A model generated the notes under the pieces. It searched no databases, had not been told where the DNA came from, and saw nothing but the letters and a program-made list of their open reading frames with translations. From Candidatus Stahliibacteriota bacterium (GTDB lineage: Bacteria > Hydrothermota > UBA3073): a stretch of DNA of 61,675 nt. The DNA lies in NCBI GenBank assembly GCA_030627085.1, contig DAOUSS010000001.1:1-61675 (forward strand), given 5' to 3'. The translations under genes were made by a program, and so were the position numbers. Positions 25,425-40,008 of the stretch are shown piece by piece; the stretch's first letter is position 1, and each line of letters opens with the position of its first letter.

Positions 25425-25574
25425 ATGGAGAATAGACATCCTCTTACAGAACGAATAATAGCCTGTTGTTATAGAATTCACTCTGAATTAGGGCCAGGAT
25501 TTAATGAGAAAGTATATCACACTGCTCTGAAATTGGCTCTTAATCGAGGAAGGTTAAATTATGAATCGGTGTAA
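25425..25574 (+). pseudogene. truncated GxxExxY-family (PD-(D/E)XK-like) gene fragment
   Basis: Encodes MENRHPLTERIIACCYRIHSELGPGFNEKVYHTALKLALNRGRLNYESV*, which matches only the N-terminal third of the intact paralog at 38526-39065 (LTNRIIKACINVHTQLGPGFLESIYHKALEIELKKQGL). Confidence 0.65.
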
Positions 25575-25607
25575 TCAGGTATAATGAACATCATACCAGG
25601 GGGAGTT

Positions 25608-27043: not shown

Positions 27044-27433
27044 ATGACTATGGCACATAGCAGGGAATACAAAGGGTTTCGGGATTTGAAGGCATACCAG
27101 TTGGCATACAAATTGGCGATGAAGATTTTTGAAGAGACCAAGCATTTCCCCGTCGAGGAGAAATACGGCTTAACGAGTCAAATCAGAAGGTCATCACGCT
27201 CTGTTCTTGCTAATATTGCAGAAGCGTGGAAGAAAAGAATTTACAAGAAGGCATTTGTAAATAAATTGATAGATAGCTATGGAGAGGCAGGGGAAACAGA
27301 AGTATGGTTAGATATGTCTCTTGATAGTGGTTATCTGGGTAAAGAAAAACATAAATACTTTCTTAACGGGTATGAGGAAGTAGGCAAAATGTTATATGGA
27401 ATGATTAGTCAACCAGAGAAATTTTGTTCCTGA
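27044..27433 (+). CDS. four-helix-bundle protein ('23S rRNA intervening-sequence protein' family)
   Basis: FRDLKAYQLAYKLAMKIFEETKHFP..EKYGLTSQIRRSSRSVLANIAEAW is the hallmark N-terminus of this family. About 125 aa. The start could be ATG 27050. Confidence 0.85.
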   Translation: MTMAHSREYKGFRDLKAYQLAYKLAMKIFEETKHFPVEEKYGLTSQIRRSSRSVLANIAEAWKKRIYKKAFVNKLIDSYGEAGETEVWLDMSLDSGYLGKEKHKYFLNGYEEVGKMLYGMISQPEKFCS

Positions 27434-38200: not shown

Positions 38201-38375
38201 AGACAGTGATCGGTTATCAGTCTTCGGTGAACTCAGCCGAACCGTGATCGGGTTATCAGGTCTTTCACAAGGATCTCTTACAATCTCTTTAGTTCCCTGT
38301 TGAAAAAGAAATTGACAGGGATTGTAAGAGAAAAAGATATTTTCAGAAAAAACAATTTCTTCTCTGTTTAAAACT

Positions 38376-38409: not shown

Positions 38410-38449
38410 ACAACTCTACAGCGTAAATCAGTGTCAAAAAAACAAAAAT

Positions 38450-38521
38450 TTGTGGGGGCGGGATTCGAACCCGCGACCTTCAGGTTATGGGCCTGACGAG
38501 CTACCACTGCTCTACCCCACG
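38450..38521 (-). tRNA. initiator-type tRNA-Met (anticodon CAU), CCA not encoded
   Basis: Reverse complement CGUGGGG UA GAGC AGUGGUA GCUC G UCAGG CCCAUAA CCUGA AGGUC GCGGG UUCGAAU CCCGC CCCCACA A folds as a cloverleaf. C1:A72 mismatch and close similarity to E. coli tRNA-fMet, as recalled from memory. Confidence 0.85.
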
Positions 38522-38525
38522 ATGA

Positions 38526-39065
38526 ATGTATTATAACACAGAAAATCCCATTTGTCAAGAAAAAAATTCAAGGCAAAAGGAGAAAGGGGGAAAGAAGGAG
38601 ATAGAGAAAAAGAAATTAATTTTAGAAGAGTTGACCAACCGCATCATTAAAGCCTGCATAAATGTCCACACCCAGCTTGGACCTGGTTTTTTGGAGAGTA
38701 TATATCACAAAGCTTTGGAAATTGAGCTAAAGAAACAGGGACTTGAATTTGAAACAGAAGAAGAATACAAGATCTTCTACGACGGAATGGAAGTGGGAAC
38801 TCACCGATTAGATTTGTTGGTCGAGGATGCGGTTATTGTTGAATTAAAGACAGTGGAAGAGATACATAAGAAGTATTACGCACAGCTGCAATCTTATTTA
38901 AAGGCAACAAATAAGCCCGTAGGTTTGTTAGTCAATTTTGCCGATTTTAAAATAGATATACGAAGAGTAGAGTTAAAGAGACAAGGAGAAAGGAATTCAG
39001 GAGAAAAGGGGAAGGGGGAGAAATGGGGAAGTTTAAATAATTTAGGTTTTTTTTCCTTTTCATAA
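38526..39065 (+). CDS. GxxExxY-family protein (PD-(D/E)XK nuclease-like), both ends run into purine-rich repeats
   Basis: The core LTNRIIKACINVHTQLGPGFLESIYHKALEIELKKQGLEFETE...RLDLLVEDAVIVELK...YAQLQSYL contains the GxxExxY and D..(E/V)ELK motifs. The true start is uncertain (possibly TTG 38631). The N- and C-terminal KEKGGKKEIEKK / GERNSGEKGKGEK tracts are repeat-derived. Confidence 0.75.
   Translation: MYYNTENPICQEKNSRQKEKGGKKEIEKKKLILEELTNRIIKACINVHTQLGPGFLESIYHKALEIELKKQGLEFETEEEYKIFYDGMEVGTHRLDLLVEDAVIVELKTVEEIHKKYYAQLQSYLKATNKPVGLLVNFADFKIDIRRVELKRQGERNSGEKGKGEKWGSLNNLGFFSFS
38530..38558 (-). promoter_or_regulatory. sigma70-type promoter TTGACA-N17-TATAAT (minus strand) for the tRNA
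   Basis: Plus-strand attata 38530-38535 and tgtcaa 38553-38558. Only 8 nt separate the -10 from tRNA position 1. Confidence 0.6.
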
Positions 39066-39096
39066 CTTCTCTCTTTCTCCTGAAAGACCCAAAGGT

Positions 39097-40008
39097 ATGA
39101 ATGAACTTGTTTCCATAATTGTCCCCGCATACAATGAGGAGGAGAACATACCACTTCTTGTCGATGCGGTGGATAGTATGATAAAGGAGAGCGATCTTCA
39201 CTGTGAACTCATAATAGTGGACGATGGGAGTGAGGATGAGACTTATATAAAGGCGGTAGAAGCCCGAAAAAACCATAATTTCATAAAAGTAACCCGTCAC
39301 AAGAGAAGAATGGGTGTTACAGAGGCTCTTCTTTCTGGTTTTAAGATGGCGGAAGGGGATATTTTCGTATACTTTCCCGCTGATCTACAATATGCCTCTG
39401 AAGACATTTCAAAGATGGTTGAGAAAATACAGGGGGGTTATGATATCGTATGTGGTTGGAAGGTTGGAAAATATAATAAGAGATTTGTGTCTAATATTTA
39501 TAACGCACTTTCAAGAATATTATTTCGCGTTCCAGTCCATGATTTGAATTCAATAAAGGCATTCAAAAGGGAGATCATCAATGAGATACCCTGGCGTAAG
39601 GACTGGCATCGTTATATGGTAGTAATGGCTTACGAACAGGGCTTCAATGTGGGCGAGGTCAGAGTAAACCTCTATCCGAGGAGATATGGTAAGTCAAAGT
39701 TCGGTGGACCAGGAAGGGCAATCATAGGTGTTCTTGACCTCATTGCAGTAAAATTCCAAGTTTCATTTATGCGTAAGCCGATGTTGTTCTTCGGTTCAAT
39801 TGGCGGAATTTTACTTCTTGCAGCACTTATTGTGGGTATTATCGCACTGTATATGAGATTTGGGCTTGAACGAGGTTACAGACCCCTTATCTATCTGGTT
39901 ATTTTCCTCGGGTTGAGTGGACTTATCCTATTTATTTTTGGTTTCCTTGCTGAGACAATTGCTGGTATCAAAGATGAGATAAGACAATTAAAAAGGAGTA
40001 ACAAGTAA
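39097..40008 (+). CDS. GT2-family polyprenyl-phosphate sugar synthase-like glycosyltransferase (DPM1/GtrB/CsbB type)
   Basis: IIVPAYNEEENI, VDDGSEDET, FPADLQ (DxD-type), and two C-terminal TM helices. Confidence 0.85.
   Translation: MNELVSIIVPAYNEEENIPLLVDAVDSMIKESDLHCELIIVDDGSEDETYIKAVEARKNHNFIKVTRHKRRMGVTEALLSGFKMAEGDIFVYFPADLQYASEDISKMVEKIQGGYDIVCGWKVGKYNKRFVSNIYNALSRILFRVPVHDLNSIKAFKREIINEIPWRKDWHRYMVVMAYEQGFNVGEVRVNLYPRRYGKSKFGGPGRAIIGVLDLIAVKFQVSFMRKPMLFFGSIGGILLLAALIVGIIALYMRFGLERGYRPLIYLVIFLGLSGLILFIFGFLAETIAGIKDEIRQLKRSNK

Follow-up and report, generated by a model that had tools for sequence, protein, structure and literature searches.

In repetitive extragenic palindromic (REP) and REPIN systems, the gene of a small enzyme, the REP-associated tyrosine transposase (RAYT), is flanked by inverted copies of a repeat that is also dispersed as gene-less hairpins; such systems pass on mostly by vertical descent, persist for long in a lineage, and have a repeat type of their own for each enzyme type (PMC3116915; PMC3337134; bioRxiv 10.1101/2022.05.22.493013). 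Ssn nucleases of the GIY-YIG type, for which cleavage of single-stranded DNA (ssDNA) has been demonstrated, are encoded by small genes framed on both sides by the hairpin repeat (NTS/SRM) that Ssn recognizes. These repeats occur in many copies around other genes, the association is found across phyla, and specificity differs between homologues (PMC11893778). Intervening sequences (IVSs) of 23S rRNA enclose an open reading frame (ORF) of ~0.4–0.5 kb by terminal inverted repeats and are distributed sporadically; the helix-45 IVS of Coxiella burnetii, for instance, carries an S23p ORF (PMC4990558). Further, the intergenic heptamer direct repeats of marine Beggiatoaceae (TAACTGA; PMC4679880) and of cyanobacteria are 7–8 nt words in tandem that occupy untranslated spacers and are abundant genome-wide. 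Here, we describe a locus that resembles each of these systems, namely a cassette of ~510 nt (38576–39084) in which a GxxExxY gene lies between inverted arms built of short words. The cassette is located in a stretch of 61,675 nt, hereafter the window, which constitutes contig C20 (DAOUSS010000001.1) of a 1.93-Mb metagenome-assembled genome (347 contigs, 40% G+C) of Candidatus Stahliibacteriota. This genome is referred to as G000, and the genomes compared with it as G001–G007 and G020.

In its logic, the cassette resembles REP/RAYT and Ssn/NTS, but it differs in enzyme and repeat. RAYT is a Y1 transposase of the IS200/IS605 type, whereas the GxxExxY product is of the PD-(D/E)XK (Cas4/RecB-like) type and its activity is predicted. 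REP arms are a single palindrome, while the arms found here are arrays of 7–8 nt words, and many paralogues with different words coexist, with nine GxxExxY genes in this genome. In contrast to Ssn, the protein shows no GIY-YIG match and belongs to PF13366; its cleavage activity is putative, and its repeat is a word array that is swapped together with the gene. Unlike the Coxiella IVS, the cassette lies outside rRNA (between a tRNA-Met and a glycosyltransferase gene, and not in helix 25 or 45 of 23S rRNA), its arms are 71% complementary as compared to a near-perfect 28-bp stem, its ORF belongs to another family, and it bears no sign of selection for pairing at the RNA level. The S23p, or four-helix-bundle, family is itself represented in the window by a gene in the same kind of pocket (27044–27433). 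An earlier note on this DNA had stated that GxxExxY ORFs occur inside rRNA intervening sequences, which could not be confirmed in searchable papers. The heptamer repeats are direct repeats of a single word without a linked nuclease gene, whereas the words described here are specific for locus and subfamily, form inverted arms, and are tied to a protein family. With regard to transposons and miniature inverted-repeat transposable elements, profile searches matched the ORF to no transposase family; the arms resemble terminal inverted repeats in matching best at their outer ends, where nine of nine positions of arm A (AGGAGAAAG) agree with arm B. A GxxExxY cassette armed with word arrays is not described in the literature searched.

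On the plus strand, the cassette opens with arm A (38576–38612), a purine word array (GGAGAAAG GGGGAAAG AAGGAGATAGAG...), followed by the conserved PD-(D/E)XK core (38628–38969). Behind the core, the second purine array A' (38985–39033) has the same orientation as arm A and forms a local hairpin with arm B (39045–39084), a pyrimidine array (...TTTCATAACTTCTCTCTTTCTCCTGAA) that adjoins the ribosome-binding region of the next gene; the purine tracts can also be delimited as 38575–38616 and 38999–39032. As proposed in the earlier note, a GxxExxY ORF (38526–39065) thus lies between purine arrays that are followed by a pyrimidine complement, with all elements at the coordinates given there. Its further proposal that this complement can pair with either purine array agrees with three inverted pairs detected in a repeat search, one between A and B (38578–38611/39048–39081, 34 nt, 71% complementary) and two between A' and B (38996–39014/39066–39084, 19 nt, 84%; 39017–39033/39064–39080, 17 nt, 82%). 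In the minimum free energy (MFE) fold, arm B is divided between the two purine arrays, its first half pairing with A' and its second half with A, which closes the whole cassette. The A'/B hairpin reaches −32.6 kcal/mol. Since purine/pyrimidine composition alone yields most of this pairing, and the z-scores of the RNA folds are weak (−1.43 for the whole cassette, −1.89 for the A'/B hairpin), folding energy was dropped as evidence. The significance of the arms comes from comparison with other genomes and not from this locus alone.

All nearest homologues of the protein carry purine words upstream and pyrimidine words downstream of their genes, and most of the downstream arms end in CCTTA. These homologues stem from Nitrospinota (71 and 69% identity), Sumerlaeota (67%), Ratteibacteria (66%), Neomarinimicrobiota (64%), G020 (62%), Pirellulales (57%), and Stellaceae (56%). 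In G020, the gene occupies a different site, between a gene for a tetratricopeptide repeat (TPR) protein and a flagellin-like gene. At the present locus, the words are of the GGAGAAA/GGGGAAA type upstream, with the pyrimidine complement downstream. The purine words are always found on the sense strand, upstream of the gene. The next subfamily (50–59% identity, ...KEFEDIHFAQ...) is flanked by CACGAAA and TTTCGTG words, and other paralogues in the class each have words of their own, which they have in common with their closest relatives in other genomes. Across phyla, the words follow the subfamily of the protein, irrespective of host and site. Residues 12, 53, 84, 86, 90, 105, and 121 separate the purine-word from the CACGAAA-word subfamily and are candidates for specificity determinants, a pattern that shared ancestry alone would also give.

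The inverted arrangement of word arrays is a trait of the GxxExxY family. Among 53 homologous loci from many phyla for which both flanks are available, 42 have an inverted-flank score of at least 12, as compared to a mean of ~8 and a maximum of 12.5 for shifted pseudo-genes placed in the same loci; apart from one tie, these 42 lie above all shifted controls. In the genome under study, six of the seven testable GxxExxY loci score at least 10, a value reached by 12% of controls, and several genes of the four-helix-bundle family (PF05635) score 15–23.5, including that at 27044–27433. Other GxxExxY and four-helix-bundle genes of the genome also carry inverted word arrays that are specific for each copy, as the earlier note had anticipated for the flanks of further copies. 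On contigs C2, C71, C279, C134, and C343, several GxxExxY or four-helix-bundle genes are located exactly at contig ends, so that the cassettes probably break the assembly and their copy number is likely undercounted.

The chromosomal site of the cassette is found in several states among relatives. Gene order is conserved in the family as enolase, tRNA-Met, spacer, and the gene of a family-2-type glycosyltransferase (GT2; 39097–40008, plus strand), which serves as the right-hand synteny anchor. In all genomes compared, the variable segment begins right after the A-tract of the tRNA promoter and ends at the GT2 start codon. G005, G006, and G007, which belong to another genus (GT2 70–71% identical), contain an orthologous GxxExxY gene (76–87% identity) with the same purine/pyrimidine arms. 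In G002, a member of the same genus that was taken as the closest relative (GT2 91%, enolase 97%), the gene is absent and two purine/pyrimidine hairpins occupy the site. The loop of the second hairpin retains TTAATTTTAGAAAGG, corresponding to the 5' end of the ORF (LILE...), and the G002 spacer represents a cassette emptied by internal deletion of its gene. In G003, also of the same genus (GT2 95%, enolase 99%), a GxxExxY gene with 42% identity is located at the site, with ACGCAGAT words upstream and ATCAGCGT words downstream, and the purine arms are gone except for a 10-nt trace. G001 and G004 harbor gene-less arrays of G003-like and other words. Finally, the spacer between tRNA-Met and GT2 in G006 (L015) combines an empty and a full cassette unit in tandem, each with a terminal CCTGAAGAACATT. 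In the empty unit, the purine arm resembles arm A fused to the end of A', which looks like the product that recombination between two direct purine arms would give. Gene and arms are kept, lost, or swapped as one unit at this site, in line with the earlier suggestion that gene and arrays travel together. Elsewhere in the window, a truncated GxxExxY gene (25443–25568), positioned just before the gene at 25584, consists of 42 N-terminal codons (LTERIIACCYRIHSELGPGF...) that continue directly into the downstream arm typical of its subfamily (GTGTAATCAGGTATAATG...) and represents a second case of an internally deleted cassette.

Since orthologues reside at the same site in another genus and synonymous sites are near saturation, inheritance is mainly vertical. 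The proportion of synonymous differences (pS) between this genome and G005 is 0.61 for the GxxExxY gene and 0.72 for GT2, so that the high identity of the protein is ascribed to strong constraint. Recent horizontal transfer between the genera g1 and g3, considered because of the difference in identity between this protein (87%) and GT2 (70%), was ruled out by the high pS. The cassette is both vertical and mobile on different time scales, being mostly inherited vertically with occasional loss and replacement within one genus. Of the mobility suggested in the earlier note, loss and replacement at the site were thus observed, while the orthologues at the same position in another genus point to descent that is mainly vertical. 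The closest homologues outside the family belong to other phyla (56–71% identity), in agreement with the “multiple transfers” given for PF13366 in the census of PD-(D/E)XK proteins (PMC3424549).

The GxxExxY product is a predicted nuclease of the PD-(D/E)XK, Cas4/RecB-like type. Residues 35–148 (nt 38628–38969) match PF13366 (PDDEXK_3; 3.5e-40, 137.4 bits, cut-off 22) and TIGR04256 (GxxExxY; 5.6e-41, 139.5 bits, cut-off 35). Both the GxxExxY motif (GFLESIY) and the D...ExK signature of the PD-(D/E)XK fold (HRLD, VELK) are present, followed by a QxxxY motif (QxxSY). E32, D71, and E81 do not vary among 47 homologues, and K83 and Y99 (the latter in the QxxxY motif) hardly do, while the Q of this motif differs in some of them. 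A sequence search of the PDB with the protein found no solved structure. The AlphaFold2 model has a predicted local distance difference test (pLDDT) score of 94.2, and its best PDB folds in Foldseek are Cas4 SSO0001 (E 4.5e-4, template modelling score 0.59), Cas4 Pcal_0546, LHK-Exo, lambda exonuclease, MGME1, and AddAB. These enzymes are RecB-like nucleases that act on DNA ends or single strands. In the purine-word subfamily, a paralogue in G020 (L056; C1:33450–33806, minus strand; 43% identity) has lost key residues, reading GFDKKLY instead of GxxExxY and EVE instead of ELK, and still possesses the downstream pyrimidine array; it may be a binding-only or dead copy.

Comparison with the G005 orthologue gave dN 0.064 and dS 1.28 (dN/dS ~0.05), and with G007 as outgroup, 17 synonymous and one non-synonymous codon change were assigned to the lineage. 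The gene is thus under strong purifying selection rather than decaying, and therefore the protein must be made. The exact 179-aa product was found encoded on no other contig. This length corresponds to the maximal ORF (38526–39065, plus strand), which differs at both ends from the orthologues of G005 and G006. In these, the start is an ATG inside arm A (ggagATGgagaaaagg) and the stop a TAA directly after ...VELKR. In the present copy, the orthologous start reads ATA (38601–38603) and the orthologous stop CAA (38982–38984), and the frame runs 5' to the ATG at 38526 and 3' to 39063–39065, adding 25 N-terminal and 31 C-terminal codons (tails KEKGGKKEIEKK and GERNSGEKGKGEK). Because the purine arrays are almost free of T, stop codons are impossible in them; the two tails arise from this property together with the ATG-to-ATA and TAA-to-CAA changes. 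The frame does read through the arrays, as noted earlier; the tails, however, are read-through and not designed parts of the protein, and the odd ORF ends are a secondary feature. The ATG at 38526 is indeed the sole in-frame ATG and sits between the 5' end of the tRNA and the −10 box of its promoter, after an in-frame TGA. It is unlikely to be the native start, as the orthologues start inside the array, although this copy has ATA there and is clearly still under selection. Consequently, the overlap of the ORF with the tRNA promoter that the earlier note described is an artefact of taking the maximal ORF.

The words of arm B are not confined to the cassette. With at most one mismatch, the B word TTCTCCCTTTCTCC has 33 copies in the genome as compared to six for a reversed control, and 24 of the 33 are intergenic. 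Several belong to short hairpins that contain no gene (AAGGAGAAATGGNGAAAG...TTCTCCCTTTCTCCTTA). Enrichment of the B word extends to all genomes of family f1 and to genus g6, in which this protein subfamily occurs, and is not seen in the rest of the class. Moreover, CACAAAG (98 array sites, 53 contigs) and CACAGAG (73 array sites, 55 contigs) are the most frequent tandem word families of the genome, and either of them also flanks a GxxExxY gene (e.g., on C43 and C318). The abundant words ACCTAAT, AACTAAC, and AATTACC have no linked gene in the assembly.

With moderate confidence, we interpret the locus as a nuclease-plus-cognate-repeat cassette, whose arms would be partner sites of the encoded enzyme. 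Such a cassette would pass on by vertical descent under selection and, from time to time, lose its gene or be swapped. Most likely, the arms represent cognate nucleic acid sites of the predicted nuclease. The enzyme would bind them on DNA and probably also cleave them there. We infer that the protein binds or cuts its words and that this activity may maintain or spread the hairpins. The same words are dispersed as gene-less hairpins, some of them being cassettes emptied by internal deletion. At this site, the cassette itself has long been kept by vertical descent under strong purifying selection; over time, it can disappear or give way to a different GxxExxY cassette that has words of its own. 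A tentative and rather doubtful extension would make GxxExxY proteins a large family of small word-specific nucleases, in which each paralogue reads a 7–8 nt word bracketing its own gene and maintains or spreads the matching gene-less hairpins, a REPIN/RAYT-like partnership with a Cas4/RecB-like enzyme and many specificities per genome. In this extension, specificity might reside in positions near the QxxxY helix, residues 84, 86, 90, and 105 being among those that separate the purine-word from the CACGAAA-word subfamily. The hairpins might account for much of the intergenic DNA in the lineage, which we consider possible at best.

Several observations weigh against the interpretation as a cognate-repeat cassette. 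The inverted-flank score of this locus is 10, which 12% of 1416 control ORFs in the genome reach; ~3.5% of them attain a flank complementarity of at least 14, and word arrays fill many spacers of the genome. The arm complementarity of this locus alone is thus not beyond the background of a repeat-rich genome. Part of the association of words with protein subfamilies could be due to common descent of the entire unit. B words are most numerous in G004 (63), which has no close homologue of the gene, and G001, G002, and G003 keep many of them without it; at present, the words are therefore not dependent on the gene. A strict link between gene presence and word abundance across the class was rejected, as it holds only at the level of lineages and fails within f1. 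No insertion or excision was seen between near-identical strains, among which no pair differing by the cassette was found, and no target-site duplication is visible at the arm ends in the loci that were read, for which no systematic search was made. For expression of the gene, no plus-strand promoter was found nearby, the sole good sigma-70 match being the minus-strand tRNA promoter, and three codons are candidate starts of this copy (ATA 38601, TTG 38631, and ATG 38526).

An alternative that we regard as unlikely places the function of the arms in RNA. They would pair in the transcript to form a long stem enclosing the ORF, which RNase III would cut as in ORF-bearing 23S rRNA IVSs; such a cut would excise the ORF or insulate it from the mRNA of the glycosyltransferase operon and hide its start region. 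The Coxiella IVS, in which RNase III cleaves a 28-bp terminal stem around the ORF, provides a precedent (PMC4990558), and the occurrence of both the A/B and A'/B pairings in the MFE fold, the stability of the A'/B hairpin (−32.6 kcal/mol), the start codon of the orthologues within an arm, and the position of the cassette directly before the start codon of the next gene are all consistent with it. Selection for pairing in the sense transcript should, however, favor G·U over A·C mismatches, and no such wobble bias was detected over 63 cassettes (103 sense-strand versus 93 antisense-type mismatches, p = 0.52) or within the purine subfamily (25 versus 25). Transversion mismatches are common in the 63 cassettes (248), and in the words of G003 the central base is systematically non-complementary. 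The lack of a G·U excess and the central base of G003 therefore suggest that the words are conserved, while pairing as such is not. Furthermore, arm B displays 31 invariant columns over six copies (TTTCATAACTTCTCCCTTTCTCCTGAA), while the purine arms vary; as 60–70% of the synonymous sites beside it have changed, its near-invariance shows selection on the sequence. The weak fold z-scores (−1.4 and −1.9) and the conservation of the word class across phyla, which a purely structural constraint does not require, also speak against an RNA stem. The view of the arms as pairing hairpins, as put forward in the earlier note, consequently has to be modified, since simple pairing does not appear to be what selection keeps, given the absence of a G·U excess and the conserved sequence of arm B.

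The purine words could also act as repeated Shine-Dalgarno (SD)-like sites, with the pyrimidine arm mimicking the anti-SD of 16S rRNA and the hairpins tuning translation of GxxExxY or of the following glycosyltransferase gene. This is suggested by GGAG and AAGGAG within the words, by orthologue starts that lie in the array ~10 nt after a GGAG, by the distance of 12 nt between the end of arm B and the GT2 ATG, and by the further purine array that in G005 and G006 follows right after arm B and carries the GT2 SD. Yet other GxxExxY subfamilies share the architecture with words that are not SD-like (CACGAAA, CACAGAG, ACGCAGAT), and gene-less copies of the words occur at many sites in no fixed relation to start codons, which renders SD mimicry improbable. 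Coincidence would mean that an ordinary, vertically inherited gene happens to reside in a genome in which slippage makes word arrays that are unrelated to it. The abundance of arrays in this genome, the score of 10 attained by 12% of control ORFs, and the orthologues at the same site in another genus are as expected from this explanation. Against it stand the same word class at the closest homologues in six other phyla and at the different site in G020, the 42 of 53 loci that exceed their shifted controls, the conservation of arm B while synonymous sites are near saturation, and the joint exchange of gene and words in G003. Coincidence is largely refuted by the words across phyla, the survey of 53 loci, and the conservation of arm B, and we consider it very improbable.

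The PF13366/GxxExxY family is very large, is spread across prokaryotes, and has no assigned function; few papers mention it, and the PD-(D/E)XK census lists it as “Unknown” (PMC3424549). The locus provides the family with a concrete candidate partner, the word arms, and at a single chromosomal site, the cassette is seen retained under selection, reduced to a hairpin, and replaced by one with different words. Should the protein indeed read its words, this would explain the origin of many unexplained intergenic heptamer and octamer arrays and link them to “intervening sequence” gene families. A collection of small nucleases that differ in their short specificities could then be obtained as well.

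The left limit of the variable spacer is the tRNA promoter (38530–38558, minus strand), a 12/12 match to TTGACA-17-TG-TATAAT with an upstream TG extension, which is kept in all relatives compared. The only other candidate for a start within the frame of the gene besides ATA and ATG, the TTG at 38631–38633, corresponds to position 2 of the family model. The only plus-strand promoter-like match (10/12), at 38312–38341, falls within a separate word hairpin (CTCTTACAATCTCTTTAGTTCCCTGT/ACAGGGATTGTAAGAG, 38270–38335), which is placed between the enolase gene and the terminator hairpin of the tRNA (38411–38385, minus strand). The words of this hairpin resemble the flanks of a different GxxExxY subfamily in relatives (L055, L060, and L062).

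The tRNA-Met(CAT) gene itself (38449–38522, minus strand; ARAGORN) is initiator-like. It shows the C1·A72 mismatch that is a usual feature of initiator tRNAs. Of the three G-C pairs that characterize the anticodon stem of initiators, only two are present, and its CCA end is not encoded. The anticodon loop CCCAUAA contains C at position 33, where U is almost universal. This loop is common to seven of the eight genomes of the family (loci including L011, L012, L014, L015, L019, and L027), while G007 has CUCAUAA.

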